A stretch of 64,000 nt of DNA, from contig JAFUCL010000103.1 of NCBI GenBank assembly GCA_017459725.1, forward strand, positions 67 to 64,066, written 5' to 3'. How positions within the stretch are numbered: the first letter of the stretch is position 1; every line of letters begins with the position of its first letter. Positions 1 through 21,638 of this stretch are shown here, piece after piece. A program made the translations under genes and the position numbers. Source of the DNA: Solobacterium sp. (GTDB lineage: Bacteria > Bacillota_I > Bacilli_A > Erysipelotrichales > Erysipelotrichaceae). A model generated the notes under the pieces. It had not been told where the DNA came from. It saw only the letters and a program-made list of their open reading frames with translations, and ran no database searches.

Positions 1-191
1 GCTTGAATCTCTTGAATATCGCCATTGAAATGAAATCTTTTCACTCTGGCTGGCTTCATTTGGATGTTCGCTTTAAATGAATCTAAAAAGAGGCTGTTTT
101 CCAGCCTCAGAATGTTTCACCATTCCTTAACTGTTACAGCCTCTTTTTTTATCCCTTCCGGTATTTGTGCATACCGAACAAAAAGAACAGG

Positions 192-776: not shown

Positions 777-865
777 ATTCCTGTCCTCCTCACTCAGTTA
801 CCTTACAAGGAATTTTTCTTTCCGTCAATCATGTTATAATTAGAAGCTGTTACGGAGGGCACAGT

Positions 866-3231: not shown

Positions 3232-3233
3232 AC

Positions 3234-3512
3234 TCAGTGTTTGTTCTGCGTATTGCCCCAGTATGCTGATCCTGCTTTGGTGAAATCATTCAGTATCATT
3301 ACCGGAACCTGCGCAAAACGCCCCTCTTTCTTCCGCAGTCTGGCACAGGCTGTCAAACGTTTTCTGCCGTCCAGACATATATATCCGTCTTCACATTCAT
3401 TGACTCTGACCGGTATGGCAATGCCTGAGCGGGCAATGCTCGCAAGCAGTTCATCACCCGGTTCACATTCCTCAAACCGGATCAGATCAAGACTGACTTT
3501 CTTCGTGATCAT
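3234..3512 (-). CDS. Small stand-alone ParB/Sulfiredoxin-like N-terminal domain protein (about 92 aa)
   Basis: LLASIARSGIAIPVRV...YICLDGRKRLTAC fits the ParBc pattern; start taken at MITKK (3512), overlapping the upstream stop; ends 2 nt before rluB. Confidence 0.6.
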   Translation of the reverse strand: MITKKVSLDLIRFEECEPGDELLASIARSGIAIPVRVNECEDGYICLDGRKRLTACARLRKKEGRFAQVPVMILNDFTKAGSAYWGNTQNKH

Positions 3513-6462: not shown

Positions 6463-6500
6463 ACCCGCTATTCTACCATAGATGCACAGACGAAACAAAA

Positions 6501-7406
6501 TTACAGCTCTCTCAGCTCATCCATCCAGATCAGATTGGAAACGGGAGACACTGTATATACTTTGGTGAACTCCTCCACGGACATTTCGAGATTATCCCGT
6601 CCGTATACGGCGTTGTAGAAGCGGAAGAGATTGTCACCCACCTTCCGGTAAGCAACAAAATGAGAACCGCGGCGGTGGAAATACAGGAATATACCGCAGG
6701 CGGAAGACTTGATCCTATGCAGGCACATTTCCTTGACCATATGCGTCATATGCACATCCAGACCCTGTTTCTTCAGCCAGGCATAGAGTCCGTATATGGA
6801 GTGTCCGAACAGTTCCCCTAGAAAATCATCCGAACCAATCTCATCAGCACACTCAAACATAGTGCGCTCCATACCGTTCATCTTAAGGATATTGTATGCC
6901 GCAATCCAGCCGCATCCCTTGTCACGCGAACTGAAAAAGCCGAACGGAAGCACTTCCGTCAGTCCCTGATGGATAATATACCCTTCACTGTCAAATACCG
7001 AATCTTTTACTGCATATCTGTAGCCTTCGACAAGACGCTGCAGTACTTTACCCTTCGGAAAGAACAGATTATGTTTCAATGCCCGGATGGTTTCCGCATC
7101 ACTGCCTTTATACAGAATACGTTCGGGATGATCCCTGACAATGATTCTGTTTATAAGCAATGCGGCTGTATGGAAGAGAACCTTGCGGGTCTTCCGTTCC
7201 GGAACCGTAATAAAGTAATCCAGCACACTGATGCTGTTCTCTGTTTTCCAGCGGCAGATACCGATCCTGGCATTGTCTTCCAGAACGTACACAAAACAGT
7301 CCCAGGCACTGTGGTCCATCTCAAAAAAATCCGGCGGCAGAACACCTGGATCTGCATTTACCGGATCATAAATACTGCTGAATTGGTTTTCAGACAGAGT
7401 CAGCAT
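6501..7406 (-). CDS. Hypothetical protein: possible GNAT-like N-terminal half plus papain-like (C39-like) cysteine peptidase C-terminal half
   Basis: C-half has YIIHQ (oxyanion Q), KGCGWIAAYN (Cys), GSHFVAY (His) and FYN in papain-fold order; in-operon spacing with both neighbours. Confidence 0.55.
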   Translation of the reverse strand: MLTLSENQFSSIYDPVNADPGVLPPDFFEMDHSAWDCFVYVLEDNARIGICRWKTENSISVLDYFITVPERKTRKVLFHTAALLINRIIVRDHPERILYKGSDAETIRALKHNLFFPKGKVLQRLVEGYRYAVKDSVFDSEGYIIHQGLTEVLPFGFFSSRDKGCGWIAAYNILKMNGMERTMFECADEIGSDDFLGELFGHSIYGLYAWLKKQGLDVHMTHMVKEMCLHRIKSSACGIFLYFHRRGSHFVAYRKVGDNLFRFYNAVYGRDNLEMSVEEFTKVYTVSPVSNLIWMDELREL

Positions 7407-7408
7407 GC

Positions 7409-7843
7409 TTACTGATTGTCCTCTGTCAGATTTTCCTTGATATAGCGGTATGCTTTTCTGAGCATCGCTGCATCGTTTTCATATGTAAGGATAGCCTGTG
7501 CATCCATGATACCGACCCATTTCACTTCACTGATTTCAGAATGGTCAGGATGCTCTGAGCCGGAGACAGGTGTGGCAAGGAAATAAACAACCTCTTTCTG
7601 AACACCGCTCTTAGGGCTGTAATGTGTTTCCTCTCTGAAACCGGGATCAAGGCTGGTCATAAAACCGGTCTCTTCCTCTACTTCACGGAGTGCAGTTTCC
7701 ATCTCGTTTTCTGCATTCTCAATATGTCCTTTTGGGAAACCCCAATGTCCCTGATTATGGCGGATAATCAATGTTTGAATCTGATCATTTTCACGGCGGT
7801 ATACGACAGCACCGCAGGACTTTTCTCTGACTGGATAAGACAT
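7409..7843 (-). CDS. NUDIX hydrolase, Ap4A hydrolase-like
   Basis: Nudix box GHIENAENEMETALREVEEETG; EKSCGAVV and HWGFPKGH; AGGAGG RBS before ATG 7843. Confidence 0.88.
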   Translation of the reverse strand: MSYPVREKSCGAVVYRRENDQIQTLIIRHNQGHWGFPKGHIENAENEMETALREVEEETGFMTSLDPGFREETHYSPKSGVQKEVVYFLATPVSGSEHPDHSEISEVKWVGIMDAQAILTYENDAAMLRKAYRYIKENLTEDNQ

Positions 7844-7869
7844 ACGATTCCTCCTAAAATTCTTACTAT

Positions 7870-7878
7870 AGTATAGCA
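7870..7878 (-). promoter_or_regulatory. Extended -10 promoter (TGcTATACT) for the NUDIX operon
   Basis: TG-n-TATACT 26 nt upstream of the start codon; TTGAAA lies 19 nt further upstream (non-optimal spacing). Confidence 0.55.
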
Positions 7879-8118
7879 CCAAATGACCATGCCTTTTCAA
7901 GTACATTCATGAATGTATTTTTGCGGTAAGAGCGCTTTGTTAACGTATTTACAAGGATTTTACATATCATACAGTTTGTAAAGACTGACTGTTTATTACA
8001 TGCAGAGATGGTTAACATCAACCGAATGTGCCTGCCGGAAATCTCCTCTTCCGAAAGGTTCGCAGCCTTCAAAAATCGGCTGTTTTAAAGCGTTTTCGCT
8101 CATACAGGCAAGGAACTG

Positions 8119-8142
8119 AAAAAGGCGGGATTTCCCGCCTTT
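8119..8142 (-). terminator. Intrinsic terminator of the giant surface protein operon
   Basis: AAAGGCGGGA-AA-TCCCGCCTTT hairpin with T-run on the minus strand, 6 nt after the stop codon. Confidence 0.85.
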
Positions 8143-8148
8143 CGGTGT

Positions 8149-11100
8149 TTATTCGGCTGTTTCATTCTCTTCCTGCTTCTCTTCGTTGCGGCCTGCTATG
8201 ATCAGCACCAGCACGATCTGGATGATCAGCAGAATCGCCATCAGGATCGTCCATCTGTCGAACAGACGCATGGTCCTGCTCATATCCTCGGTGAGGATGA
8301 ACACCACCACGGAGATCACGGCAATCAGGATGGAAATCAGCGTATGCGGCAGACTGTTCTTTTTGCTTTCTTTTTCATCTGCTTCCTCCGCCTTGGCTTC
8401 CGGCGCATCCTTTTCTTCCTCATCCTCCGTATCTTTCTTACGGTTGATCAGGTATACCGCAGCCATGAAGACTGCCGCAAATACGGACGCTGCCGCCGCA
8501 ATCAGGTTAATCAGAGCCCAGTAACCGACCGGTGCGTTTACCAGAGGTACTGACGCTTCATCGAGTTCAACAAGTTCTGCTTCCCCGTCGTCGCTGATCT
8601 GTACCTGGGCAAGGACTTCCTTGTCACGGTCAGGATCACCTGTACGGATCTGCTCTGTTTCTGCGGTAACCGTCGGTTCAGCTGTTACGGCTGCCGGTGT
8701 GCCGGTGCCTGCCGTTGGCTGTACCGGTGCAGGTGTCTGCGGTGTTTCACCGCCGCCATCACCAGGTTCTTCCGGTGCTGCCGGTACAACGACAGGTTCG
8801 GCTGCGGCCGGTCTGACCGGTGTATAGACAACCGTCAGTTCCAGATCACGCTCAGGCATGCCGTTCTCATCGGATACAACAGCATCGTACTGTGCTTCCA
8901 TACCCTCAATGTGCGGGGATATGATCGGACCGAATGCCTGTCCCTTCTGATATCTTGCCCGGAACGGATCCGCCAGGCTTCTGCCGGCTTCATCGAGATA
9001 CCGCACTGTCAGGAGATATGTGCCGGTGATTTCAAGCACACCGTTCTCGACTGTTACCGCAAACTGCTCAGTGACATCATTTCCGGAAGGATCCTTCACC
9101 ACGGCCTGTCCCTTCAGTTTGGCAGGCCAGATGCCTGCTTCCCTTGCGGTGACTGCCGATTCAAGACCGCTGACGGTATATGTCACACCGTTTACTGTGA
9201 AGGAATCCGCCGCGAAGCCGCTGACCGTATGTTCTTCTCCGTCATAGAGAACCTTATCGCTGTTGGCCTGCATGGTGATTTCATACTTGGCATCACGGTT
9301 GGTTACATTGATGGTTCCGAATACGGTTGTGAAGATGTAGTTGCTTTCTTTCGTATTGGCTGCTAGCACGGTTGTGAATGAGTTCTCGCTGGTGCCCGGG
9401 AGTGTACGGGCTGCGGACGGGATGAACTGTGCTCCTTCACCGGACGCAAAGCCATCACCTGTTACAGTGACACCGCCGCCCTGCAGAGGACTGCCGTCAT
9501 ACTTGCGGCTGATGACTGCCGAGGTCAGCGTTACGCGTCTGGGCAAAATGCGGAGTATGCCGTTTTCCGTCTTCACCGCAAACTGCGATGTGACATCATT
9601 GCCCGCATCATCAATCACGGACGGTGTGCCCGTTACCGTCACGGCGTATTCACCGGCATCTGTTCCGGATCCTTCACCGCTGAGACCGAGAACCGTATAT
9701 TTCTTTCCTTCGTATTCGAATGCGGTGTTCTTCAGCCCGCTTACGGTATACTCATCACCGCTGTACAGATACTCACCGCTTCTGGCACTTACGGTAACCA
9801 GAATCCTGGCATCACGGTTGAGGACTGCGAGTCTTCCGTATTCCTTGCGGATGTTGTAGTTCTCTTCGCTGGTGCCGTCATTCAGTGTATACGTGAAGAG
9901 GTTTTCACTTTCACCGACAATTGTTCTGCCGCTGCTGAATCTCCACACAGCACCTTCATTCTGTGCGAAGCCGTCACCCGATACTTCCACTGTTTCATTG
10001 GTCAGGCTTCTGCCGTTATAAGGCATTTCGGCTGAACCGGAGGTCAGGACAACGTTTCGCTTATCGATCTTCAGGATACCCGGGACCGTACGCACGATGA
10101 ACTGTGAAGTCACATCATTGCCTTCCGCATCCCTGACGACCGGAGTGCCCGTCACATGAACCGGATAGCTTCCGGCATTGACTGCCGTAATTCCGGCACT
10201 GAGACCGCTCACTTCGAAGACTGCATTTCCAACCGTAACCGCCAGCGCTTCACCATCAGCTGCTCCGTTTTCAGCGGAATAAATGCCGCTGAGTGTATGT
10301 TCGCTGCCGTCATAGAGCACGGTTCCGGAAGGTCCGGCTACGGTGATTTCGTATTTCGCTGCATCCGGTCTGCCTGTTACTGTCAGGATTCCGCATGCGG
10401 TCGTTACCACATAATCACCGGGTCTTGTGCCTTCGTTGAATGTATAGGTAAACGTATTCTCGGAAACACCCACGATTGTGCGGCTGCCCGATACATGCAC
10501 GGATATGCCGTCACCTTCGGCGAAACCGTCACCGCCGTACAGAACGGCAGGATTGCTGAGCGGTGTGCCGCTGTAGATCTTTTCGGCATCCGCAGAGCGC
10601 AGGGTGATTCTTCTCGGCTTAACCGTCAGGGTTCCCGGTTTGACGGTGACGATGAACTGGTCGCTGACATCGTTGTTCATTTCATCCAGGACAACCGGTG
10701 TTCCTTCAGCCGTAACCGGATAGCTTCCGGCGTGTACTGCTGCGGTATTCACCGTCAGTCCCGTCACGGTATAGACATGCGAAGCAATTCCGAAGCGGTT
10801 GCTGCGGAGAGTTGTCACGGCATGTTCATGACCGTCATACAGTGCTTCAGCCGAGGAAGTCTCCACGGTGATTGCATAGCGTGCGCTGCGGTTGACAACT
10901 GTAAGGCTGCCGTATTCTTCACGGACATCATAGTTGGATGCTGCCGTACCTGTGCGCATCGTCCAGGTGAAAGTATTCTTTGAGACACCCGGCAGGGTCT
11001 GGGTTCCGGTCACTGTGAAATCAGCCCCTTCACCTTCCGCGAAGCCGTCTCCCGTTACGGTGACATTATCCGCTTTCAGTTCATTGCCGCTGTATTCCGC

Positions 11101-14100
11101 TTCTGCATCTGCTGATGTGAAGACGAGGCTGCGGCGGTTGATTTCGAGCATGCCGTTCTGCAGGGTAACGATGAACTGCGAGGTTACATCATTGCCGTTT
11201 TCATCCAGTACAGCCGGGGTGCCGGTGATCGTTACCGGATAGCTGCCTGCCATGGTTGCGGCTGCTTCGGCAGTAATGCCGGTGACTTTGTATTCATGTC
11301 CGTCTGCCGTGAAGGTATCCTTCACAAAGCCGGATACGCTGTGTTCCTTGCCGTCATAGAGTGTTTTGAGACCTGCGGCCTGTACGGTTACTTCGTACTT
11401 CGCTTCACGGCTGCGGACAACAAGTCTGCCCTCTTCCTTGCGGATATTGTAGTTGGCAGCCAGGGTTCCGTCTGTGAGTCTGTAGTCAAATGTATTGGCG
11501 CTGCTTCCGGGGATCGTCTGCGAACCGCTGACACTGTACGCTGCACCTTCTCCTTCCGCAAAACCGCTGCCGAGCACTTCCACTGTACTGCATGTCAGCG
11601 GACTGCCGTCATATTCTCTGATCGCCCCGGCGGAGCGCAGAACCACATCCCTGCGGACGATGGTCAGGGTTCCGTCATGGGTGCTGATGGTGAACTGATC
11701 CGTCACATCATTGCCTGCCGTATCCGTCACCTTCGGTGTACCGGTTACTGCGGCCGGATAGATGCCTGCGTTTTTCTCATTGACACTGACGTTCAGACCG
11801 CCAATCTGATATCTGTGACCGTCTGCTACGACTTCGGTGCCGCGCAGTTCCGTTGCGGAATGTTCGCTGCCGTCATAGACATACGAAGCATCAACTGCGA
11901 ATACGTCTGCCGTGTACTTCTCTTCACCGCTGCGGTCCTTGACTTCCAGCACACCGAACTTTCTGCTGATTTCATAGTCATCTGCAGATGTGCCGCTCTT
12001 CAGGAAGTAATCAAAGCGGTTATCGGCGGTACCCGGCTGCGTTCTTGTTCCGGTAACCGTAATCACGGCACCTTCGTTTTCCGCAAAACCGTCACCTGAG
12101 ATAATGACGCCCTGGTTCTCCTGCAGTCTTGTTGTCAGCGGATCACCGTCGAATGTCTTGTATGCACTGAGGGATTCGAGATGCACTTTGCGGCGGTCGA
12201 TTGTAAGCGTGCCGTTCTGCACACTGACCGCAAACTGTTCCGTCACCTCGGCGCCCGTACTGTCAAAGACACGCGGTGTACCGGAAACGGTAACCGGATA
12301 TTCACCGGCATGTACGGCCGTTGCCTTTGCACTGAGGCCGGCAACCGTATACGTCCTGCCGTCGATTTCAACCTTGTCACTGATCAGTCCGCTGACTGTA
12401 TGCGTGGTTCCGTCGTACTTTGTATGCAGGCTTCTTGCACTGACTGTGACACCGTACGGTACATCACGGTTCAGTACGTTCAGTGATCCGAACAATGTAC
12501 TGATGCTGTAATTATCCGCATTGGTTCCTGCATTCATCGTGTAGGCAAATGTATTCTCAGAGACGCCTACAACGTTCTGGCTTCCGGTGACATCAAATAC
12601 AGCCCCTTCACCTGCCGCAAAGCCGTCTCCGCTCACTGTTACCGTTGAAGCTCTCAGCGGTATGCCGTCATATTCCTTCTCTGCCGAGGCACTGCTCAGC
12701 GTGACACTGCGTTTGGCAATATTCAGCTCGCCATCACGCAGATGCACCGCAAACTGTGAAGTCACATCATTGCCGTGCGCATCCGTGATCACCGGCAAAC
12801 CGGTAATCGCAACCGGATATGTGCCCGCATTGACGGCGTTTGCCGAAGCACTGAGTCCGCTCAGTGTATAGGACTGACCCCCGACGCTGAACTTGCTTCT
12901 GGTGAGACCCGTAACGGTATGTTCCTGACCGTCATAGAGGAAGTTTCCTCCTGCTGCAGTCACTGTCATATCGTATTTCACCTTACGGTCCGTAACCCGC
13001 AGGATACCCGGAACAGCCGTAATCAGATAGTCACCTGCTTCTGCTCCGCCTGCCAGTCTGTAGGTAAATGTATTGGCACTGGTTCCTGCCGTCAGCTGGG
13101 AACCGGTGACATCGTATTCTGCATAATCATCACCCGCAAAGCCGTCTCCGGATACGGTGACAGACGGTGCGGTAAGCGGTGAGCCGTCATATTCCTTCTC
13201 CACGGATGCGGAGGAAAGCGTAATGCGTCTCGGTTTGATCTGCAGTGTGCCGCTGATGCGTTCGACATCAAACTGTGCGGTAACATCATTGCCCTCTTCA
13301 TCAAGAACAACCGCATCACCTGTAATCTCTACAGGATATGTACCGGCATGCAGTCCTTCGGCCGCTGCACTGAGTCCGCTGACCGTATACTGTCTGCCGT
13401 TGACACGGAATGTATCCAGCAGAATACCTTCAACGTTCTGTGTTTCACCGCTGTATACCGTTTCGCGGGAAGCTGCCGTAACCGTAATCTTCAGATGTTC
13501 ATCCGCATTGCGGTCGGTGATTGTCAGCGTTCCGTATTCAGAAGAGATGATGTAGTTTGCTGCACTGGTCTGATCCGCCGGCACATATGTGAATGTGTTC
13601 AGCGAAGAGCCCGGCAGAAGCTGTCTTCCGGTCAGGGTGACACTGACGCCTTCACCCTGTACGAAACCGTCACCGCGGATACTGATGCCGCTGTTGTCGA
13701 GATCTGCCGTTGTCAGTGCCGATCCGTCATAGGCCTTGGCAGCCGATGCGGAAACCAGAACGACACTGCGCTTACTGATGGTTAGGGTTCCCTTTTCAGC
13801 AGTGACCGCAAACTGCGATGTGACATCGTTGCCTGCTTCATCCTTCACCACTGCCGTTCCCCTTACAGGGATGGAATAGGTACCGGCATTCTTCTGTTCG
13901 ATGGAAGCACTGAGTCCGCTGATCCGGTAATTGTTGCCGTCCACCGTGAATGTTTCATTCTCAATACCGCCGGCTTTCTGCATTTCACCGTTATAGACCA
14001 GATCATGATCTGCAGCTTTGACGGTTACCGTATACAGCGCATCACGGTTGGTGACGGTCAGTGTGCCGTACACAACGGATACGGTATAGTTTGCTGCATT

Positions 14101-17100
14101 TGTGCCGCTGCGGAAGCCGTAGGTAAACCGGTTCTCGGATGAGCCGACAACCGTCTGTAAACCCGTTACTCTGAATTCTGCGCCTTCACCTGCCGCAAAG
14201 CCTTCACCGCCTACAGTTACATCACTGTTGCGCAGCGGGTTGCCGTTATACGGTCTGGAATCGGAAGCGGAGGTCAGAACGATTCTTCTCTCCCGCACCG
14301 TAAGGATTCCCGATGCATATGCAGGTTCATAGTTCGGATTCTCTGCCCTTAACGAATACACCAGCGTTCCGGCATCGGTGAGTTCGGGTGCTGTATCCGT
14401 CCAGCTGTTTCCTTCATCCAGGCTGTAGGAAAGCACGGTATTCTCAGGAACACCGCCCTGTACACCTGCAGAGAGAGGAATACCGTCATATGCTTTCTGC
14501 CCGGATACTGCACTTACGGAAAGCACGCCTTTGCGGACAGTCAGTTCACTGCCCGTGAATGACACTTCGTAGTTGCCCTGATTCTTTTCATATTCTGCAC
14601 TGATTGCGTAGGTTCCGGCATCTTCACCGGCTTCTCTCTTCAGTGTATAGGCAATTGTATCTCCCTCAAGCACCCCGGTAATCTCTGCTTCAAGTACAGG
14701 ATCAGCACTGCCGAATACCTTCGCGGCAGGCAGTATAGTGATCTGCACCGGACGCGGGGTGATCTCGATCACCGCTTCAGCCTCGGCCGGTTCATAATTC
14801 GGATTCTCTGCCTTGATACGGACTGTCATCCTGCCGGCATCCTTAAGACCCGGAGCTTCTTCACTCCAGGTGCTGCCGTTATCCGTACTGTAGGAAACGG
14901 TTGTTCCTTCGGATACAGATGGCTGTGCGGAAATGCTGTGCACGGCACCGTCATAAACACCGGTATATCCCGATGCATAGATGCTGAGTGTACCGGCCTT
15001 TTCGATGACAAATGAACCGTCTTCAAACGATACCGTATAGTTGCCCTGCACTTCATTGCCTGTGCTGTGAATAACATAGGTTCCTGTTTCTTCGCCGGCA
15101 TCTCTTCTGAGGGTATATGCAATCCGGCGTTCTTCACCCGGTTTACAGCCGGTAATGACAGCCTCCAGGACAGGATCTTTTTCACCGAACGTCTTGCCGC
15201 TGTCTGCAGCTTTGACGGTTACCGGCGCTCTGCTGATTTCAAGCGTTCCGGGTATCGTTTCGGTCACGATATATCTGCCGGTGGTATCGATCAGACCAAT
15301 GGTGCCATCCGCAAACGCATTCGTATATGTGCCGGCATCCGTGCCTGAAACACCGCATACAACACCATTGAAGACAACCCCTGCCGGTGATACCGAATAT
15401 CCGGATATACTGTGTTCACTGCCGTCATAGACGGTGGTGAGGCTTTCCGCCTGCAACGCTGCATTGATGCAGTATTCCATGCGGATCTCCATACCTGCCG
15501 CAGATACGGTTACTGTCTTTGCGCCGCTGCGCGGTGTGTATCCTTCGATCTGTTTCGGGGATACTTCCACCGTTTCACCAAAGCGCTTCATCACGGTTTC
15601 TGCCGGTACGATCAGCTCATCCGTGCCCTGGATATAATGTCCTACCTTGACACTCACCAGACGCTTTGTGTAGTATACACGGATAACATTCTTGCTTTCA
15701 TCCGCATCCACTGTAATAGAGGACGGTTCGGCAGAACTGAATGTGAATCCGGTTCTTGTCTTATCGGTATATGAAGAAATCACGGTTCCGATCGGTGTGC
15801 CGGAAGAAACAATTGTTTCCGACGCATCCATCACACCGTCATAGTAGTATTCAACCCGGTAACGTGACGAAGTAGCCCGGTAGCCTCCGTAGAAAGTTGT
15901 ATTGCCGCTCAGACTTCCGGAGAAATCAGCCGGTACCGTATAACCGGGATCCAGATACCAGCCCGTAAACTCATAGCTGATACCGTTGTAATTCATTGTC
16001 TGCGGAACTGCTTTGGCCGATGGACGCTTTACTGCACTCAGGGCTGTTCCTTCCGTGAATCTCTGCGCATAATCCGTCAGGCCTTCCGGCTGTGAATTGT
16101 ACGGATATTTAACCGCAAAACTGACACTGACATATGACGTCTCGTTGAGAACGCAGATATAGTCCATATGGTACGTGTGGACTTTGCTGACATACGGATT
16201 GTAGGAATTGTATCCGGCATTCGCACCGGATGAAACGGTTACACGGAACGGCTGCAGTGTGTAGTAGCCGTATTCCTCTGCTTCAGGTGATCCGGCCTGC
16301 GCATAATGGTATGTCACACCATCATAGGTCAGATCCGGATACAGTGGTTTGACAGTACCGCCCACCGTATAATCCGTGATGACTGTTCCGAGTGAGAGAG
16401 GACCGGGATCCTTGGCACCGCTGATTTTGGATACACCCAGACCAAACCATCTGGAATCGGCGTTGCTGTTGTTATTGTTGGCATCAGCTCCCGGAATCAG
16501 GCCATAGTGATAAAGATCATATTCACTGAATTCCACGTTTACCGAAGCGGAGGCTGTGTATGTATTGCCGTACAGACTGTCCTCTTCCGGTGCAACCGCA
16601 GCTGTCACAACGGCAGTGCCCGATGAAACAGCGGTTAAGGTACCGTTGTCAACGGTCACAACCGACGGATCGGAGGATGTCCATACAATTGTATTCTCAG
16701 AACTGATATTGTTCAGTTTGGCCTTCAGAACGGCTGTGTCTCCGATGCCCTGCAGGGAGACGGAAACAGGTGAAACGGAAATGGAAGGAACAAGTACGGC
16801 TTCCTGTACATATACCGTATATGTACCGGCAGTCGTATATCCGCTCCAGCCAGAACCTGTCTCAAACGTAATGACGGCAGTGCCTGCATTCAGTGCAGTC
16901 ACAACACCTGCAGATGAGACTTTCGCCACCGATGAATCAGATGATTTCCACTTTTTGCTGCTGTACCACAAACTTACTTCGGGCTGCGGAATCTTCAGGG
17001 TTTCACCCACACGCAGTGTGTATTCCGCGCTGTCGCTCTGTACGGAAGATGTCGTGGTAACAACATAGGTTGAGAATCCGGACGCACTGAAAGAAACCGC

Positions 17101-18309
17101 ATCCGCACTTGCTGAATCGGATACTTTCTCAATACTTCCGCTGTTATCGACATGGAATACCGATGCAGCTTCACCCTGCTTAACACCGGCACCCGTAATG
17201 GATACATGCACCGGTTTCTGCGGCTCTATTTCGCTGCCGTTCCGGTCATGGATTGTAATATCATAGGCAACATAGTCGACCAGCTCATTGTCATCACCGA
17301 TTGCACCCTCAATCGCAGAAAGAACATGACCTGCCGATACGATTCTGACCTGTACCGAAGAATTCTCGGGGAGAGCTCCTTCCGGCGCGTCAATCACGAT
17401 TAAAGCACCATCGGATGCAAATGCCTGCAGTGTCATGGCCGGCATCTTTTCTTCTTCCGGTTCTTCTTCCTCAGGTTCTTCTTCCTCAGGTTCTTCTTCC
17501 TTTTCGGGTTTCTCGGTTTTTTCCGGCTTCTCTGTTTTTTCCGGTTTTGCACTTTCTTCCGGTTCTGCTGTCTCCTCAGGTTCCGCGGTTTCTTCAGGTT
17601 CTGCGGTTTCTTCAGGCTCTGCGGTTTCCTCCGGTTTTGCGGTTTCCTGCGGTTCAGCAGTTTCTTCCGGCTGCGCTGTTTCGGCAGGCTGTTCGCTTTC
17701 CTGCGGTTGTGCGCTTGCTTCCGGAGCAGCTGTTTCTTCAGGGACTGCTGTCTCCTGCGGTACGGTTGTCTCGGCCGGAGCAACTGTTTCTTCCGGAGCA
17801 GGTTCCTGGACAGGTTCCGGTTCACTCACCGGCTCCGCTGCCGGTTCAGGTACGGCTGCCGGTTCAGGTTCAGCGACAGGCTCGGGTTCGGGTGCCGGTT
17901 CCGGAACAGGTTCCTCTGCCGGTACTTCCACGACGACCTCGGGTGCCGGTTCTTCTGCCGGTGCCTCGGGAATCACTTCCGGAGCAGGTTCTTCCGCCGG
18001 TGCCTCTGGAACTACTTCCGGAGCAGGCTCTTCAACCACAGGTTCTTCAACAGGCTGCTCTGCTTCTTCAACTACGATCTCCTGCGGTATTTCCTCAGGA
18101 GCTTCTTCTTCGAGGAACACTTCAATTGTTTCTTCTGAAAGTCCCTCTTCTTCCGTGTATGCTTCATCCGTTACAGCTGTTTCATCCGGCAGCTCCGTTG
18201 CATACAGAATCCGTTCTGTTGAGCTGGACAGTCCGTACGTCACTACGACCACCAAAGCTACAAACAACAGCGTAATCCTTCTAAGAATCTTCCGCATTGT
18301 CTTATTCAT
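8149..18309 (-). CDS. Giant (3386 aa) repetitive cell-surface protein, putative adhesin: signal peptide, acidic E/P/A stalk, Big_2-like, InlB-B-like, MucBP-like and MBG-like domains, three C-terminal TM helices
   Basis: Single 10.2 kb ORF; signal peptide ending ILYA; KWKSSDSSVAKVSSAGVVTAL (Ig group 2); FTGWYLD; repeated YDG..GxLxI modules; three hydrophobic segments in the last 130 aa; no LPXTG. Confidence 0.9.
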   Translation of the reverse strand: MNKTMRKILRRITLLFVALVVVVTYGLSSSTERILYATELPDETAVTDEAYTEEEGLSEETIEVFLEEEAPEEIPQEIVVEEAEQPVEEPVVEEPAPEVVPEAPAEEPAPEVIPEAPAEEPAPEVVVEVPAEEPVPEPAPEPEPVAEPEPAAVPEPAAEPVSEPEPVQEPAPEETVAPAETTVPQETAVPEETAAPEASAQPQESEQPAETAQPEETAEPQETAKPEETAEPEETAEPEETAEPEETAEPEESAKPEKTEKPEKTEKPEKEEEPEEEEPEEEEPEEEKMPAMTLQAFASDGALIVIDAPEGALPENSSVQVRIVSAGHVLSAIEGAIGDDNELVDYVAYDITIHDRNGSEIEPQKPVHVSITGAGVKQGEAASVFHVDNSGSIEKVSDSASADAVSFSASGFSTYVVTTTSSVQSDSAEYTLRVGETLKIPQPEVSLWYSSKKWKSSDSSVAKVSSAGVVTALNAGTAVITFETGSGWSGYTTAGTYTVYVQEAVLVPSISVSPVSVSLQGIGDTAVLKAKLNNISSENTIVWTSSDPSVVTVDNGTLTAVSSGTAVVTAAVAPEEDSLYGNTYTASASVNVEFSEYDLYHYGLIPGADANNNNSNADSRWFGLGVSKISGAKDPGPLSLGTVITDYTVGGTVKPLYPDLTYDGVTYHYAQAGSPEAEEYGYYTLQPFRVTVSSGANAGYNSYNPYVSKVHTYHMDYICVLNETSYVSVSFAVKYPYNSQPEGLTDYAQRFTEGTALSAVKRPSAKAVPQTMNYNGISYEFTGWYLDPGYTVPADFSGSLSGNTTFYGGYRATSSRYRVEYYYDGVMDASETIVSSGTPIGTVISSYTDKTRTGFTFSSAEPSSITVDADESKNVIRVYYTKRLVSVKVGHYIQGTDELIVPAETVMKRFGETVEVSPKQIEGYTPRSGAKTVTVSAAGMEIRMEYCINAALQAESLTTVYDGSEHSISGYSVSPAGVVFNGVVCGVSGTDAGTYTNAFADGTIGLIDTTGRYIVTETIPGTLEISRAPVTVKAADSGKTFGEKDPVLEAVITGCKPGEERRIAYTLRRDAGEETGTYVIHSTGNEVQGNYTVSFEDGSFVIEKAGTLSIYASGYTGVYDGAVHSISAQPSVSEGTTVSYSTDNGSTWSEEAPGLKDAGRMTVRIKAENPNYEPAEAEAVIEITPRPVQITILPAAKVFGSADPVLEAEITGVLEGDTIAYTLKREAGEDAGTYAISAEYEKNQGNYEVSFTGSELTVRKGVLSVSAVSGQKAYDGIPLSAGVQGGVPENTVLSYSLDEGNSWTDTAPELTDAGTLVYSLRAENPNYEPAYASGILTVRERRIVLTSASDSRPYNGNPLRNSDVTVGGEGFAAGEGAEFRVTGLQTVVGSSENRFTYGFRSGTNAANYTVSVVYGTLTVTNRDALYTVTVKAADHDLVYNGEMQKAGGIENETFTVDGNNYRISGLSASIEQKNAGTYSIPVRGTAVVKDEAGNDVTSQFAVTAEKGTLTISKRSVVLVSASAAKAYDGSALTTADLDNSGISIRGDGFVQGEGVSVTLTGRQLLPGSSLNTFTYVPADQTSAANYIISSEYGTLTITDRNADEHLKITVTAASRETVYSGETQNVEGILLDTFRVNGRQYTVSGLSAAAEGLHAGTYPVEITGDAVVLDEEGNDVTAQFDVERISGTLQIKPRRITLSSASVEKEYDGSPLTAPSVTVSGDGFAGDDYAEYDVTGSQLTAGTSANTFTYRLAGGAEAGDYLITAVPGILRVTDRKVKYDMTVTAAGGNFLYDGQEHTVTGLTRSKFSVGGQSYTLSGLSASANAVNAGTYPVAITGLPVITDAHGNDVTSQFAVHLRDGELNIAKRSVTLSSASAEKEYDGIPLRASTVTVSGDGFAAGEGAVFDVTGSQNVVGVSENTFAYTMNAGTNADNYSISTLFGSLNVLNRDVPYGVTVSARSLHTKYDGTTHTVSGLISDKVEIDGRTYTVAGLSAKATAVHAGEYPVTVSGTPRVFDSTGAEVTEQFAVSVQNGTLTIDRRKVHLESLSAYKTFDGDPLTTRLQENQGVIISGDGFAENEGAVITVTGTRTQPGTADNRFDYFLKSGTSADDYEISRKFGVLEVKDRSGEEKYTADVFAVDASYVYDGSEHSATELRGTEVVADGHRYQIGGLNVSVNEKNAGIYPAAVTGTPKVTDTAGNDVTDQFTISTHDGTLTIVRRDVVLRSAGAIREYDGSPLTCSTVEVLGSGFAEGEGAAYSVSGSQTIPGSSANTFDYRLTDGTLAANYNIRKEEGRLVVRSREAKYEVTVQAAGLKTLYDGKEHSVSGFVKDTFTADGHEYKVTGITAEAAATMAGSYPVTITGTPAVLDENGNDVTSQFIVTLQNGMLEINRRSLVFTSADAEAEYSGNELKADNVTVTGDGFAEGEGADFTVTGTQTLPGVSKNTFTWTMRTGTAASNYDVREEYGSLTVVNRSARYAITVETSSAEALYDGHEHAVTTLRSNRFGIASHVYTVTGLTVNTAAVHAGSYPVTAEGTPVVLDEMNNDVSDQFIVTVKPGTLTVKPRRITLRSADAEKIYSGTPLSNPAVLYGGDGFAEGDGISVHVSGSRTIVGVSENTFTYTFNEGTRPGDYVVTTACGILTVTGRPDAAKYEITVAGPSGTVLYDGSEHTLSGIYSAENGAADGEALAVTVGNAVFEVSGLSAGITAVNAGSYPVHVTGTPVVRDAEGNDVTSQFIVRTVPGILKIDKRNVVLTSGSAEMPYNGRSLTNETVEVSGDGFAQNEGAVWRFSSGRTIVGESENLFTYTLNDGTSEENYNIRKEYGRLAVLNRDARILVTVSARSGEYLYSGDEYTVSGLKNTAFEYEGKKYTVLGLSGEGSGTDAGEYAVTVTGTPSVIDDAGNDVTSQFAVKTENGILRILPRRVTLTSAVISRKYDGSPLQGGGVTVTGDGFASGEGAQFIPSAARTLPGTSENSFTTVLAANTKESNYIFTTVFGTINVTNRDAKYEITMQANSDKVLYDGEEHTVSGFAADSFTVNGVTYTVSGLESAVTAREAGIWPAKLKGQAVVKDPSGNDVTEQFAVTVENGVLEITGTYLLTVRYLDEAGRSLADPFRARYQKGQAFGPIISPHIEGMEAQYDAVVSDENGMPERDLELTVVYTPVRPAAAEPVVVPAAPEEPGDGGGETPQTPAPVQPTAGTGTPAAVTAEPTVTAETEQIRTGDPDRDKEVLAQVQISDDGEAELVELDEASVPLVNAPVGYWALINLIAAAASVFAAVFMAAVYLINRKKDTEDEEEKDAPEAKAEEADEKESKKNSLPHTLISILIAVISVVVFILTEDMSRTMRLFDRWTILMAILLIIQIVLVLIIAGRNEEKQEENETAE
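9025..14292 (-). repeat. Ten tandem intragenic repeats of about 173 aa, each made of two MBG-like modules
   Basis: Ten GNDVTxQF-type motifs at about 13823, 13282, 12762, 12242, 11702, 11183, 10666, 10110, 9591 and 9072 (spacing about 517-556 bp), each preceded by LTSASxxKxYDG..GDGFAxGEG..ENTFxY. Confidence 0.9.
17449..18190 (-). repeat. Low-complexity Glu/Pro/Ala stalk with short tandem repeats
   Basis: At least six imperfect 18-bp units (ETAEPE) at 17563-17670; two exact 15-bp units ttcttcttcctcagg at 17461-17490; three EEPAPEV-type units. Confidence 0.85.
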
Positions 18310-18484
18310 ACGAGTCCTCGTTTCTATGATCTTTATCGTTCATACTGTTCCGGTAAGACTTGATTCTCTGTTTAATACTTTTCTCTTCCTGACGGTAGCG
18401 AAGATAACGCAGAATAAATGACACAGCCAGCAGTGCAATGCCCAGAATGAGCAGAATATCTGAAATCCATCCCGTCCGCATCAT
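18302..18484 (-). CDS. Single-TM microprotein (about 60 aa)
   Basis: AAGGAGGT RBS; start overlaps the upstream stop (ATGA); TM ILLILGIALLAVSFIL then basic tail; stop overlaps the giant gene start (ATGAATAA). Confidence 0.7.
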   Translation of the reverse strand: MMRTGWISDILLILGIALLAVSFILRYLRYRQEEKSIKQRIKSYRNSMNDKDHRNEDSYE

Positions 18485-18621
18485 CCTAAACCTCCTTCCG
18501 GATACTTCCGCCGGCATTCCTCCCGGTACCGTCTGCTCTGCACTTCATGATAAATGCGGCCGGCCAGGAAAATGATGACGGCAAGCACCGCACATAACAA
18601 AGCCCATACATCAGCGCTCAT
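18481..18621 (-). CDS. Single-TM microprotein (about 46 aa; alternative start 18627)
   Basis: GAAAGCGGG RBS-like; TM VWALLCAVLAVIIFLAG then R-rich tail; start and stop both overlap neighbours. The longer 114-aa version in the ORF track overlaps the upstream gene and is unlikely. Confidence 0.65.
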   Translation of the reverse strand: MSADVWALLCAVLAVIIFLAGRIYHEVQSRRYREECRRKYPEGGLG

Positions 18622-19021
18622 GATCATCACCCGCTTTCCGGGTATATGCCAGTTCAGCTTCAGCAGCTTCCCTGCGCAGCGTAAAGAGTTTCTGGTCTGC
18701 ATGGTAAAAATACACGGTATAGAACACCGAACCCAGCAGCAGCACGATTCCCATGAGCAGATGCTCGGTTCCGTTTCTGCCCGGTGAATCCGGTGAAGCC
18801 GCCAGCGGAACTTTTTCCTCTTCAATATCTTCGGCCGGAATATCCTCCACGACCGTGATCAGCAGCTCCTTCTCAGGTTCCGGTGATGGTGTTGTTTCGG
18901 CTGTTTCCTCCGCCGCAACGGTGATCTGCGAAGGCAGAGATATCATCACACTCATCGCAAAAAACAGACACAATGCGGTCAGTGCGGTCAGTAGATATCT
19001 TTTTATTCTGTTCATGTTCAT
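18611..19021 (-). CDS. Small secreted/membrane protein (136 aa) with DIEEEKVPLAASP motif and C-terminal TM
   Basis: Signal peptide ending TVAA, short acidic ectodomain, VPLA motif, TM LLMGIVLLLGSVFYTVYFY, charged tail. Confidence 0.75.
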   Translation of the reverse strand: MNMNRIKRYLLTALTALCLFFAMSVMISLPSQITVAAEETAETTPSPEPEKELLITVVEDIPAEDIEEEKVPLAASPDSPGRNGTEHLLMGIVLLLGSVFYTVYFYHADQKLFTLRREAAEAELAYTRKAGDDHER

Positions 19022-19025: not shown

Positions 19026-20225
19026 TTACCTGCTTCTCTGTTTCAGTGTAAAAGCAATATGCAGTGTGTTCCCGATATGATCCGGAATATAAACATCACT
19101 GCTTATTTGCGGGTATTCAAAGACGATTTCACCTGTTTCACTGTCATACCGCAGCGGTTTGATGATGGTGCCGCTGATATCCCTGGCATAAACACCGCGG
19201 TAATTGACACCTATGCCTTCATCCTTTACGTACAGAATGACTTCACCGTTTTCCGTACGGCTCTCGCTCAGCACCGGTCCTTTCGCATCAACTGCGGTTA
19301 CCGGATACACGGTATGGGTATTCTGTCTGTTGATCAGTTCCACCTCAATCGTCATATCCGCATTCCGGATCGGCTCAACGGTAAAGATTTTTGCATCCGC
19401 TTCATAGACCGGAAGACTGTGACTGCGGATTCTGGCAGTGACACGCCTGACCGGCAGGAACGACTTCACCGAGATCGTGTAAACAGGAAGACCCCTGCTG
19501 CCAAGATCCACGGAAGATACATCGTATTCCGGCAGAATAAACAGCATCGGCAAAGCCAGGAACAGTATTCCCGCTCCGACCGTTATTCTCTTCTGCAGGG
19601 AAAAGCGCTCTTTCCGGTAAACCGCATAGGAAGACAAAGCTTCCATCGGCACCGTATTTGCCTTCCAGCCGCAGATATCAAACGCATGGCTCAGCGTCTG
19701 CAGCAATCGGACGGGATCGGCCTTTTCCGTATGCACGAAAGGAATACTGTCTGTAACGGATACAGTACTGCGTTTGCCTGCAGAGATGCCGAGATGGCGG
19801 TCTGCCGATTTCAGATACCGCTTCACCATGGACCGGCTCACATTGAGCAGATCTGCGATTAAGGAGTTGCTCATGTTCTGTCTGTACTTCATAACAGCCA
19901 TCTGTGATTCACTCAGCGGCAATGAAAGCAGACGGATCATTTCCTCATCTTCCGTATCCGCACGTTCCATGGCACAGCGAAGACACTGGCGCAGTGCCCA
20001 GGGCAAAAACAGTTCGGGATTCTGCAGTGATGGAATTCCCTTCAGAATCATCACAACCGAACTCTGCATGAGCTCCCACACGGTTTCCCGGTCGTCACTC
20101 AGATGTCTCAGATAGATATAGAAACGCTCTGCACAGGCCGCATACAGCTCCGCAAAGGAATTGCTGCTGCCGGTCATAGCCTTACGGACTATATCATTCA
20201 GATATGCCTGGTCCAGTCTCTCCAC
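19026..20225 (-). CDS. ECF sigma-70-like protein fused to a TM helix and a predicted extracellular beta-rich domain
   Basis: Sigma-2-like SFAELY..F..W and sigma-4-like LLSLP..MS..IA.LL.VS...VK..L; TM ITVGAGILFLALPMLFIL; C-terminal VDAKGPVL (Ig-like); GTG start 20225 after GGGAG (track start 20273). Confidence 0.72.
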   Translation of the reverse strand: MERLDQAYLNDIVRKAMTGSSNSFAELYAACAERFYIYLRHLSDDRETVWELMQSSVVMILKGIPSLQNPELFLPWALRQCLRCAMERADTEDEEMIRLLSLPLSESQMAVMKYRQNMSNSLIADLLNVSRSMVKRYLKSADRHLGISAGKRSTVSVTDSIPFVHTEKADPVRLLQTLSHAFDICGWKANTVPMEALSSYAVYRKERFSLQKRITVGAGILFLALPMLFILPEYDVSSVDLGSRGLPVYTISVKSFLPVRRVTARIRSHSLPVYEADAKIFTVEPIRNADMTIEVELINRQNTHTVYPVTAVDAKGPVLSESRTENGEVILYVKDEGIGVNYRGVYARDISGTIIKPLRYDSETGEIVFEYPQISSDVYIPDHIGNTLHIAFTLKQRSR

Positions 20226-20316
20226 ACTGTTCTCCCGTCTCCTGTATATCATATATCGCAGGCGAATAATCATAAGTGCCTGCTGTTACCGGTAAAATTG
20301 ATGCTTTCTGTGACTG

Positions 20317-21000
20317 TTAAGCGGATGCACGCCGGTCTGACAGTGCCACAAGCTCCGCCAGTGAGGCTGCCTGTTCCTTCTGCTGCAGAGCTGTTCCGGC
20401 ATGGTATTTAATAGCCGCATCGGGATGCGCCTCGTTATAGTGATTGATTCCCGTTTCTACAGCTTCCAGAAATCCGGCTATCCGCTTCTCCGTACTTTCA
20501 CGGAAAATCGCAACAAACTTGTTGCCGCCGTTTCTGCCCAGGAAGCAGATTCCCCCAGCCGCATTGCTGAGGGTCTCCGAGAATGCCTGAATCGCCGCAT
20601 CTCCTCCCGCATGACCGTGCGCTTTGTTGATCTCCGACAGATTGAGCAGATCAAGGGTTACACAGCCCATATCCGCCGGTATGACGCCTTCCGCAAACCT
20701 CTGGATATAAAGGTCCACACTGTAACGGTTGGCAATACCGGTCAGGGCATCGGAATACACCGCATGGTCAAGCTCCGAATTCTCCCGGCGCAGATCTGCA
20801 TACGAATTGAAGTCATAGAACAGAAAAGCAAACGAAATGCCGAGCACAACCCACAGCAAAAGTGCCAGCATACGTATACTGCGGTCTGCCGCAATCATGC
20901 TGTACAGTTCATGATTGTTGAAAATAATCAGCAGTCCTGCCGCCGTACACAATACCAGCAGAATCAGCTGTACGGTCTTGATCACATCAAAACGCTTCAT
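20317..21000 (-). CDS. Two-TM GGDEF-domain protein with degenerate active site (GGNKF)
   Basis: DALTGIANR, INKAHGHAGGDAAI and GRNGGNKFVAIF; two N-terminal TM helices; start overlaps the lepB stop (ATGA). Confidence 0.85.
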   Translation of the reverse strand: MKRFDVIKTVQLILLVLCTAAGLLIIFNNHELYSMIAADRSIRMLALLLWVVLGISFAFLFYDFNSYADLRRENSELDHAVYSDALTGIANRYSVDLYIQRFAEGVIPADMGCVTLDLLNLSEINKAHGHAGGDAAIQAFSETLSNAAGGICFLGRNGGNKFVAIFRESTEKRIAGFLEAVETGINHYNEAHPDAAIKYHAGTALQQKEQAASLAELVALSDRRASA

Positions 21001-21554
21001 GAATCACCACCTGCTTCCCGCATCAGCCTGCGCAGACTGCCGCCGCTGTACACAAGAATAATCCTTCCCTTGATCTGCCGCAGATTCACTTCACCGAACG
21101 TCCGTGAATCAAGCGAAACGGTGCGGTTATCTCCCAGCACAAAGACATTGCCTTCCCTGACCGCATACGGGAATATGACTGTTCCCGTCTCGGTCTCCGT
21201 CTGTCCGCGCGCCCACGGTTCATCCAGCACCTCACCGTTGACAATAACACTGCCATCCGCCAGATCCACCGTATCACCGCCCTGTGCAATCACCCGCTTG
21301 ATATAGTAATCACCGGAAGGAACACGCATGGAAACCACATCACCGTAACGGTAATCTTTCCCTGTACGCAGATAGACGACAATATCACCGTCCATAAGAT
21401 TCGGATACATCGACTCACCGCCGACAACCGATATACCGATGACAAAACGGAATACAATGACCAATGCTAAAATAAGCACAATAAAGAAAAGCGAATCCCG
21501 CAGCCAGTCGAGCTTCAGACCATTGTACCGTTCCAGTAATCTTCTGTTTCTCAC
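20997..21554 (-). CDS. lepB: Signal peptidase I (S26)
   Basis: Catalytic GESMYP (Ser) and YIKRV (Lys), GDNRxxSLDSR box; one N-terminal TM; start uncertain (GTG 21554 favoured, track 21620). Confidence 0.92.
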   Translation of the reverse strand: MRNRRLLERYNGLKLDWLRDSLFFIVLILALVIVFRFVIGISVVGGESMYPNLMDGDIVVYLRTGKDYRYGDVVSMRVPSGDYYIKRVIAQGGDTVDLADGSVIVNGEVLDEPWARGQTETETGTVIFPYAVREGNVFVLGDNRTVSLDSRTFGEVNLRQIKGRIILVYSGGSLRRLMREAGGDS

Positions 21555-21566: not shown

Positions 21567-21638
21567 CTTTGGACAAGCATAATCGAAAACGGATTCGCAC
21601 ATAAAAAACCGCGTTTTCACGCGGTTTGTGAGTAATCA

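Follow-up and report, generated by a model that had tools for sequence, protein, structure and literature searches.

A VPLA-type juxtamembrane motif shared by a giant surface protein and a small, sigma factor-linked membrane protein of Solobacterium sp.

The locus and its two motif-bearing proteins

We analyzed a 64-kb stretch of DNA from Solobacterium sp. (64,000 nucleotides; assembly GCA_017459725.1, contig JAFUCL010000103.1, positions 67 to 64,066 of the forward strand), which is called the window throughout. Its source is an uncultured bacterium from a metagenome of ruminant (bovine or sheep) or other gut origin. It encodes on its minus strand, in this order, a signal peptidase I, a degenerate GGDEF protein, a membrane-tethered extracytoplasmic function (ECF) sigma factor, a small protein of 136 amino acids (aa), two mini open reading frames (ORFs; miniA and miniB) and a giant surface protein (Table 1). 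The giant and the small protein share a short peptide around the residues VPL that lies next to their membrane helices, and the nature and possible role of this motif are the subject of this study.

Table 1. Features of the operon, of the window and of related loci. Locations in related loci (L004 to L012) refer to those loci. TM, transmembrane; AF2, AlphaFold2; pLDDT, predicted local distance difference test.
Feature	Location	Strand	Size or residues	Remarks
Type I signal peptidase (S26), first gene of the module	20997-21554	(-)		Pfam Peptidase_S26 1.2e-32; ORF runs to 21620
GGDEF-domain protein with two TM helices	20317-21000	(-)		Pfam GGDEF 6.2e-16
ECF sigma factor (sigma2 + sigma4) fused to TM helix and ~165-aa ectodomain	19026-20273	(-)		TM helix aa 228-252
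Small bitopic protein	18611-19021	(-)	136 aa	Signal peptide, acidic linker, motif block, TM helix aa 87-106, conserved cytoplasmic helix
Motif of small protein, DIEEEKVPLAASP	18791-18829	(-)	aa 65-77	
Invariant ectodomain block of small protein, VVEDIPAEDIEEEKVPLA	18800-18853	(-)	aa 57-74	
Core 9-mer of small protein, IEEEKVPLA	18800-18826	(-)		
miniA, single-TM ORF	18481-18627	(-)	46-48 aa	Overlaps stop codon of small gene
miniB, single-TM ORF	18302-18484	(-)	60 aa	Stop codon overlaps ATG of giant gene
Giant surface protein	8149-18309	(-)	3386 aa	Signal peptide, Pro/Glu-rich linker, N-terminal domain, Big_2 domains, long MBG_2-type repeat array, motif, FILTED anchor
Conserved N-terminal domain of giant	16990-17472	(-)	aa 280-440	
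Predicted beta-hairpin directly before motif	8566-8610	(-)	aa 3234-3248	AQVQI/AELVE; AF2, block pLDDT 83
Motif of giant, ELDEASVPLVNAP	8530-8568	(-)	aa 3248-3260	
Core 9-mer of giant, LDEASVPLV	8539-8565	(-)	aa 3249-3257	Register of FILTED-family consensus
FILTED three-helix C-terminal membrane anchor	8173-8520	(-)	aa 3264-3379	NCBIfam NF052597
Glucosaminidase/Big_3 surface protein	3487-6498	(-)	1003 aa	C-terminal TM helix and basic tail
ORF between NUDIX and glucosaminidase genes	6501-7406	(-)	301 aa	
ORF with GT4 glycosyltransferase and RecX domains	44599-46608	(-)	669 aa	Glycosyltransferase aa 21-390; three RecX helix-turn-helix domains aa 464-659
L004, short surface protein	3462-4625		387 aa	Without C-terminal helix
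L009, short surface protein	8995-10125		376 aa	Without C-terminal helix
L011, short surface protein	10799-12772		657 aa	Without C-terminal helix
L012, MBG_2/Flg_new giant	3403-13399		4497 aa	Starts 4 bp after small gene
L007/L008, two tandem FILTED proteins	1-7279			TPLA and TPMA before WAL[IV]NL; directly upstream of signal peptidase gene

Translation of the minus strand yields both peptides at the coordinates that an initial annotation of this DNA had assigned to them. A plus-strand reading of the same coordinates gives meaningless translations and was discarded. The spacing claimed at that time is correct as well: taking the start of the FILTED model at W3264 and the TM helix at aa 87-106 as references, the motif lies 3 residues ahead of the first C-terminal helix of the giant and about 10 residues ahead of the TM helix of the small protein. 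In both cores, L-D-E-A-S-V-P-L-V in the giant and I-E-E-E-K-V-P-L-A in the small protein, the residues stand in exactly the same register as in the family consensus, where a hydrophobic residue at -5, acidic residues at -4/-3 and then V/T-P-L-A are strongly conserved. Of the longer pattern that had been proposed, [L/I][D/E]ExxVPLxxxP, the core is thus conserved and in register, whereas the trailing proline is only moderately conserved in the family of the small protein (70 of 120 members) and rare in the flanks of FILTED anchors.

Since both regions are rich in Glu and Asp and the motif is short, one might suspect a chance or compositional likeness between two acidic linkers. However, the refined pattern [ILV][DE][DE]xx[VTI]PL[AVSG] matches the six-frame translation of the window exactly twice, at these two sites, while 0.019 matches are expected on average in shuffled ORFs. 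The register is moreover kept in both protein families and in a curated hidden Markov model, so that chance, already refuted by the conservation data given below, has a negligible probability.

Conservation of the motif in the small-protein family

According to TM prediction, the small protein carries a signal-like hydrophobic segment at aa 8-37. It matched neither a Pfam nor an NCBIfam model, no anti-sigma domain is recognizable in it, and its cytoplasmic part is a single conserved helix of ~30 aa. In particular, it did not match the FILTED model NF052597 and is not a member of that family, and no CTERM-type NCBIfam model was hit even at E<=10. A first search delivered 10 relatives with an invariant V-P-L-A, and a profile search widened the family to about 120 clusters with lengths of 100-190 aa throughout. 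Their signal peptides, linkers, TM helices and tails vary; the gap between motif and TM helix amounts to 8-13 residues and the tail to 12-55 aa (median 24; ~30 aa in the window protein). The only conserved block of the ectodomain reads [RK][PK]E[IL]T[IV]EVVEDIPAx[DE]IE[ED]xxVPLA[AD], and in the 119 aligned members P and A are present 119 times each, I(-5) 118 times and L 117 times. Upstream of the motif, VEDIPA resembles a degenerate half-copy.

In an AF2 model of the small protein (43 sequences, mean pLDDT 76.4), a helix (aa 3-28) is followed by a coil (aa 29-79) and by a continuous helix (aa 80-135), whose cytoplasmic part is predicted with a pLDDT of 91-98. The invariant block belongs to the coil, where it lacks secondary structure between the two confident helices (block pLDDT about 59-64). 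With predicted TM scores (pTM) of 0.39 and 0.45, the AF2 models of this study were too low in confidence for fold searches. Because an invariant peptide sits in an otherwise variable stretch that is modelled as unstructured, the motif reads as a short linear motif, and because the motif block is the only conserved feature of the ectodomain, the small protein looks like a minimal carrier. Judging from the family alignment, it appears to be in effect a cargo-less presenter of the motif. It had been suggested to act as minimal carrier, decoy or partner; the first role agrees with these data, while a decoy for the giant alone is less likely, as its constant partners are the signal peptidase, the GGDEF protein and the sigma factor.

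The motif in front of FILTED anchors

The giant has hydrophobic segments at aa 5-32 in its N-terminal part and at aa 3261-3290, 3318-3345 and 3348-3377 in its C-terminal part. With 105.9 bits against a cutoff of 40 it is a clear member of NF052597, "FILTED domain-containing surface protein". The anchor of this family consists of the WALINL helix 1, an acidic cytoplasmic loop, the residues FILTED at the outer end of helix 2, a DxWT element, helix 3 and an acidic tail. The curated model starts at W3264, and the motif therefore falls just outside of it. In our alignment of FILTED anchors (A3), W, A, L, N, L, F, T, E, D and T are invariant and the motif proline is at least 90% conserved. An AF2 model of the last 189 aa of the giant (30-sequence alignment, mean pLDDT 66.7) shows a hairpin, a coil with VPLVNAP and three long helices.

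An exhaustive search with these 189 aa yielded 2683 representative clusters at E<=1e-3. When representatives were anchored on the domain alone, 68 of 141 carried [VTI]PL[AGSV] within 25 residues upstream of helix 1, and a P-x-[AG] within 14 residues was found in 106. The strict motif occurs independently of search rank (17, 24 and 27 of 47 per score tertile), and it is enriched more than 100-fold in the flank, the background elsewhere in the same proteins being 0.004 per window of that size. Flanks aligned on the motif (n=39) have I/L/V at -5 in all 39 cases and D/E at -3 in 36, followed by [VTI]-P-L-A and, 4-6 residues on, by the Trp of WALxNL. Two copies of the motif occur in 13 of 96 flanks, and the residues FILTED lie 46-115 aa from the C-terminus across representatives. 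A tblastn search of annotated plasmids with the FILTED anchor gave no match. The initial annotation had made its proposal depend on conservation of the motif in homologues; this comparison was made, and the motif is conserved in homologues of both proteins. We found no paper on the FILTED domain, the doubled-motif LPXTG anchor or the VPLA/TPLA motif, and a search for Firmicu-CTERM likewise returned nothing relevant.

Further observations concern the giant and another surface protein of the window. Contigs of two public sequencing runs omit 1125 and 1194 nt of the MBG-type array (9897 to 11023 and 11566 to 12761), which is consistent with repeat-number variation between strains. In a gut metatranscriptome, short contigs cover the anchor/motif region, the 5' end of the giant gene and the signal peptidase gene and thus give weak evidence of expression. 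The 1003-aa glucosaminidase/Big_3 protein of the window lacks the motif, so not every helix-anchored exoprotein of this organism carries it.

Identity with the doubled-motif LPXTG anchor

VPLA had been noted to occur in the doubled-motif LPXTG anchor of Clostridia, which is captured by the curated model NF033073, and this turned out to be correct: natural anchors read VPLAG-LPKTG. The segment DIEEEKVPLAASPDSP of the small protein aligns to positions 2-17 of NF033073, trailing proline included. Here, I-E-E-E-K-V-P-L-A-A-S-P-D-S falls onto copy 1 of the cassette, which in natural members reads V-T-I-E-P-G-D-V-P-L-A-N-L-P-E-S (model positions 1-16), and LDEASVPLVNAP of the giant stands in the same register. 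On the whole model the small protein scores 13.6-14.4 bits and thus remains below the cutoff of 48, and the flank of the giant alone gives no match.

The content of NF033073 was probed with chimeric test peptides, which are not natural sequences. A generic LPKTG with helix and basic tail scored 23.8 bits by itself and 25.4 bits with a scrambled motif in front. One copy of the small protein's motif before the LPKTG tail raised the score to 34.9-42.2 bits and two copies to 62.9 bits (model positions 2-66), while the naturally doubled FILTED flanks P0073, P0047 and P0013, placed before the same tail, reached 45.0, 48.2 and 42.3 bits. A metagenome scan for the junction PLAG-LPKTG returned natural anchors, typically ending in TVTIEPGDVPLANLPESSSSDNLILIDDGNV-PLAG-LPKTG, helix and KKREEEK, or reading IEPGDVPLANLPES...IDDGNVPLAG-LPKTG. 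Of these, 35 carry a further copy upstream, usually at a distance of 22-23 residues, and three copies are present in some; four natural PLAG-LPKTG C-termini score 66-101 bits on NF033073. Two pattern scans of viral contigs for the motif together with LPKTG gave 0 matches.

By these alignments the shared motif is very likely identical with the doubled-motif cassette, whose copy 1 can be written as [ILV]-[DE]-[DE]-x-x-[VTI]-P-L-A-x-x-(P). The cassette is shown, at the level of sequence, to be portable, as it precedes LPXTG signals (NF033073), the three-helix FILTED anchor (NF052597) and the single helix of the 136-aa family. It is located at the outer surface of the membrane, where surface-protein stalks begin, 4-13 residues ahead of the anchor and in a coil that AF2 models as unstructured. 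The motif itself was thus already known from NF033073; new are its presence ahead of roughly half of the FILTED anchors and its use by a small protein that lacks cargo and is tied to a sigma factor module.

Such a distribution bears on the view that the motif is nothing but a passive structural or topogenic element. According to it, an acidic patch and a Pro-Leu-Ala turn would terminate the exported chain, aid stop transfer by the following helix (negative charge outside, positive inside) and be shared by common descent of shuffled anchor cassettes, whereas the block of the small protein would be conserved through binding of the sigma factor's ectodomain. Speaking for this view, acidic residues of the block lie outside the membrane and K/R come directly behind helix 1 (NRKK), flanks and anchors have a modular appearance, roughly half of the FILTED members do without the strict motif, and the highly conserved sigma ectodomain is a plausible binding partner. 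However, I(-5), V, P, L and A are invariant and positions -1/-2 are free to vary in front of three unrelated anchor types, as is characteristic of a recognized peptide and not of a charge patch. Furthermore, copy 1 of the LPXTG anchors lies 22-23 residues from the second copy, ~30 from LPKTG and further still from the helix, where it cannot act in stop transfer, and the helix-anchored glucosaminidase of the window does without any motif. We therefore consider a purely passive role to be unlikely.

The proposal that the two proteins use the motif without LPXTG or sortase was confirmed in its first part only. Neither protein, nor any other part of the window, contains an LPXTG-like signal, and there is no second motif copy abutting an LPXTG. 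The native giant and small protein do not match TIGR01167, which was hit only by chimeric peptides with an added LPKTG. As to sortase, its TLxTC signature is absent from the window and from twelve related loci (L001-L012), and the window holds no gene for a sortase, a rhomboid or a protease resembling the Pro-Pro endopeptidases (PPEPs). However, none of 70 natural doubled-motif loci (600 kb), all genuine, has a sortase signature nearby either, and the absence of sortase from the window, the only scope for which it can be stated, is consequently uninformative.

One could still envision a variant sortase signal, in which V-P-L-A-[G/A] is cleaved and the FILTED domain or the single helix discarded. 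This pentapeptide resembles [L/V]-P-x-[T/A]-[G/A] and is placed relative to the helix as LPXTG would be, and 53 of 120 members of the small family keep xPx[T/S] in the LPXTG register. Yet the motif coexists with canonical LPKTG in the same natural proteins and is thus no substitute for it. The P1' residue is not conserved, position +9 is never Gly in the small family, FILTED is a conserved polytopic domain of 110 aa with acidic loop and tail and not a short helix with basic tail, and the small protein ends in a conserved helix for which the prediction has very high confidence. This makes a variant sortase signal highly improbable. We also rejected the related idea that the trailing proline is a remnant of a decayed LPXTG, because only the said 53 members have xPx[T/S] in register and copy 1 (VPLAxLPE) fits better. 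Most simply, both proteins are probably held in the membrane by their own helices.

The operon and related loci

The four-gene module of S26 peptidase, GGDEF protein, TM-bearing sigma factor and small protein is present in all 12 related loci, which stem from Lachnospiraceae-, Eubacterium- and Mogibacterium-like metagenome-assembled genomes; a search of genome contigs with a further alignment (A2) contributed 4 loci. S26 orthologues are 59-65% identical and occupy the same position in L001-L012. Orthologue N-termini and a terminator-like hairpin of ftsZ (21606-21627) indicate that the window gene probably starts with GTG at 21554 and not at the ORF start at 21620. A TATAAT box lies ~7 nt before this GTG, and the transcript may be near-leaderless. 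The GGDEF protein carries GGNKF in place of GG[DE]EF, invariantly in 8 orthologues, and with a site that is degenerate and conserved as such it probably lacks cyclase activity. The ECF part of the sigma factor was recognized only with a profile of this protein (A5), positions 11-153 of which match complete ECF sigma factors (SigW 5wuq 1.1e-11, 6dxo 8e-11 and others), while a PDB sequence search with the protein alone gave nothing significant. An alignment of 9 orthologues was made, and conservation is higher in the ectodomain than in the sigma part.

What looks like a 301-bp "gap" ahead of the giant gene, behind the small gene, holds miniA and miniB. Their starts and stops overlap both neighbors, and the stretch from the small gene to the giant is therefore a translationally coupled chain. 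Similarly sized and placed mini-ORFs, weakly similar in sequence, are found in L004, L005, L009, L010 and L011. Positional homologues of miniA measure 48-49 aa in L009, L010 and L011, although the window miniA itself matches L004 only (tblastn 1e-4); miniB matches L009 (2e-5), L010 (4e-5) and L005 (3e-3), and the mini-ORFs of L009 and L011 match each other as well as L004 and L010. Behind the module, a gene for an orthologous surface protein is found in 7 distinct loci (L004, L007/L008, L009-L012) as well as in the window. The chain of overlapping ORFs and the recurrence of this order in L012, L007/L008, L004, L009, L010 and L011 bear out the earlier view that the two motif proteins are operon partners.

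The orthologues range from 376 aa, with nothing but signal, acidic linker and N-terminal domain, to 4497 aa. In L004, L009, L010 and L011 the mini-ORFs precede a protein of 376-657 aa that has the signal region S.DR[VI]L.A[TE] of the giant and neither anchor nor motif. The giant's N-terminal domain, for which a PDB sequence search gave nothing significant, was found by tblastn in the gene that comes after the small gene in L009 (6e-35), L004 (1e-30) and L010 (5e-29) and also in a FILTED protein of L007/L008 (7e-23); the L011 protein has MBG-type repeats and no match to this domain. In L007/L008, which are Mogibacterium-like, a giant of at least 3322 aa directly follows the small gene, and together with the two tandem FILTED proteins upstream of the peptidase gene it forms a surface-protein island around the module. 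Only mini-ORFs come after the small protein in L005, and feoB follows it in L001-L003 and L006. The orthologues all have S.DR[VI]L.A[TE] directly behind the signal-peptide core, which points to a specific site for signal peptidase. From this comparison, the motif-bearing anchor appears to be a variable C-terminal addition to the surface protein.

These findings bear on whether the small protein acts as an anchor in trans that tethers the surface protein of the operon via its motif block, especially where that protein is short and anchorless. The conserved order of small protein, mini-ORFs and surface protein, the lack of a C-terminal helix in the orthologues of L004 (387 aa), L009 (376 aa) and L011 (657 aa) and the exposed coil in which AF2 places the block would be in line with it. 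However, the giant of the window has an anchor of its own and the small protein is nevertheless retained, the small protein persists in L001-L003, L005 and L006, where a surface-protein gene is missing, and thousands of unrelated proteins with FILTED or LPXTG anchors have the same motif, which this reading would not explain. An anchor in trans is thus very unlikely.

The rest of the window comprises housekeeping genes (ftsA/Z, PASTA kinase, PriA, Suf, MurT/GatD and others). The 669-aa ORF that joins a GT4 glycosyltransferase to three RecX helix-turn-helix domains is either an unusual fusion or two genes read together, and the 301-aa ORF has no Pfam or NCBIfam match.

Proposed role of the motif

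The suggestion from which this study started, that the motif is a processing, retention or assembly signal, is still an inference. The pattern of invariant and free positions points on balance to a docking motif and not to a passive linker, a view we hold with slightly more confidence than doubt. Such a motif, neither a folded domain nor itself a sortase cleavage site, would dock a membrane-proximal envelope partner common to Clostridia, presumably an enzyme or a sorting factor at work on the membrane surface. To this partner the small protein would present the peptide just as genuine cargo proteins do, yet without cargo. Occupancy or processing of the motif might then be reported via its conserved cytoplasmic helix to the adjacent membrane-tethered sigma factor, which would tune expression of the downstream surface protein. 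The constant company of signal peptidase, GGDEF protein and ECF sigma factor points to a regulatory role of the small protein; that this role is the one of a reporter is possible, albeit doubtful. We favor the combination of docking site and regulatory reporter as a working model, in the awareness that as a whole it falls somewhat short of an even chance.

Several observations weigh against this model. About half of the FILTED proteins lack the strict motif, even though 106 of 141 keep P-x-[AG], and the motif is thus not obligatory for the anchor. Neither is it private to the operon, since it precedes thousands of FILTED anchors elsewhere. As the motif families are far more widespread than the operon of sigma factor and small protein, this operon cannot be the general partner of the motif. 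In L001-L003, L005 and L006 the operon has no surface-protein gene, and in L004 and L009-L011 the surface protein is short, anchorless and devoid of the motif, so that a link to cargo with the motif is not universal. The ~30-aa cytoplasmic tail of the small protein is too short for a recognizable anti-sigma domain. Finally, the region ahead of the S26 gene revealed only ordinary sigma-A-like -10 elements and no shared promoter of the ECF type, and the promoter/terminator scan remained at background level.

Instead of a docking site, the motif might be a release (shedding) site that is cut by an extracellular or membrane-surface protease whatever the anchor; in the small protein, the same cut would be a site-1 event that leads to intramembrane proteolysis and sigma factor activation. 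Alanine at P1 and Val/Thr/Ile at P4 would agree with a rhomboid-type rule. With every type of anchor, the motif is the conserved element closest to it, it is often repeated (twice in the doubled FILTED flanks and in NF033073, three times in some natural anchors), and both a GGDEF protein and a serine peptidase are encoded in the operon. The sites of PPEP-1 and PPEP-2 are likewise repeated next to Clostridial adhesin anchors, in a system linked to cyclic di-GMP (c-di-GMP) (PMC8610288). However, the Pro-Pro bond is lacking here, as is a PPEP-like or rhomboid gene in the window, PLA is followed by varying residues (A/D in the small family; G/A/N/K/P/E in FILTED flanks), and a Pro at -3 disfavors canonical signal peptidase I cleavage at this point. 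Release is thus rather improbable. The S26 peptidase of the operon as the enzyme that cuts after VPLA was set aside separately, given established signal peptidase rules, the said proline and the position of the motif N-terminal to the helix.

The docking model can be extended to a bolder one. In this case the motif would be the recognition tag of an undescribed, anchor-independent system for sorting or regulated release, and the small protein a bait that controls the tethered ECF sigma factor, possibly with the signal peptidase of the operon as site-1 enzyme and with feedback on expression of the giant adhesin. We regard this as decidedly unlikely. Gut Clostridia have numerous giant adhesins that are little understood, and their retention and release are known only for sortase substrates. 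Here, one short peptide recurs at the stalk base in three anchor architectures and is the sole conserved extracellular feature of a sigma factor-linked small protein, so that nine mutable residues could serve as a handle for finding the envelope partner. The results also suggest that two curated models could be linked: NF052597 is extendable upstream, and the doubled motif of NF033073 is not specific for LPXTG. If the motif is a release or sorting tag, surface display in commensal Lachnospiraceae would become predictable and manipulable; if it is only a linker, a useful annotation rule would still result.

Comparison with known systems

Compared to the doubled-motif anchor NF033073, the window proteins have the same motif in the same register and in the same extracytoplasmic, anchor-proximal location, but lack the second copy that abuts LPXTG, LPXTG itself and the short basic tail. 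No published function of this doubled motif was found. As to NF052597, the giant has WALINL, FILTED and DxWT, an N-terminal signal segment and the anchor at its extreme C-terminus.

Short, Pro-containing and often repeated linear motifs next to Firmicute adhesin anchors are also known as release motifs of PPEP-1 and PPEP-2, namely in CD2831/CD3246 of C. difficile and in VMSP of Paenibacillus alvei (PMC8610288). These proteases cleave the Pro-Pro bond of (I/L/V)NP|P(A/I/V)P, the genes of protease and substrate are neighbors, and a link to c-di-GMP exists (PMC8610288). In contrast, the motif described here is [DE]xxVPLA and has no Pro-Pro bond, and no M34 PPEP gene or metalloprotease is encoded next to the operon. 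The small protein furthermore shows the general layout of motif, TM helix and charged C-terminal tail that characterizes tripartite sorting signals (LPXTG/sortase, PEP-CTERM/exosortase, GlyGly-CTERM/rhombosortase). Unlike proteins with such signals, it carries no cargo and has a conserved helical tail, while the giant ends in a polytopic domain of 110 aa whose loop and tail are acidic.

In the RsiV/SigV system, signal peptidase acts as site-1 protease in regulated proteolysis (PMC4183432, PMC6066255, PMC9044953). The operon resembles it in that an ECF sigma factor is held at the membrane and a signal peptidase, the first gene of the operon, would be a plausible trigger. However, TM helix and ectodomain belong here to the sigma factor itself and not to a separate anti-sigma factor, and no AxA-type site is evident after the sigma factor's helix. 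Operons of the tapA-sipW-tasA type encode a dedicated signal peptidase together with a secreted matrix protein. Likewise, the operon of the window combines a signal peptidase with a surface protein that bears the conserved S.DR[VI]L.A[TE] after its signal-peptide core; it differs in that the enzyme is of the P-type S26 and not of the SipW type, and in that a sigma factor, a GGDEF protein and three small membrane proteins are added.

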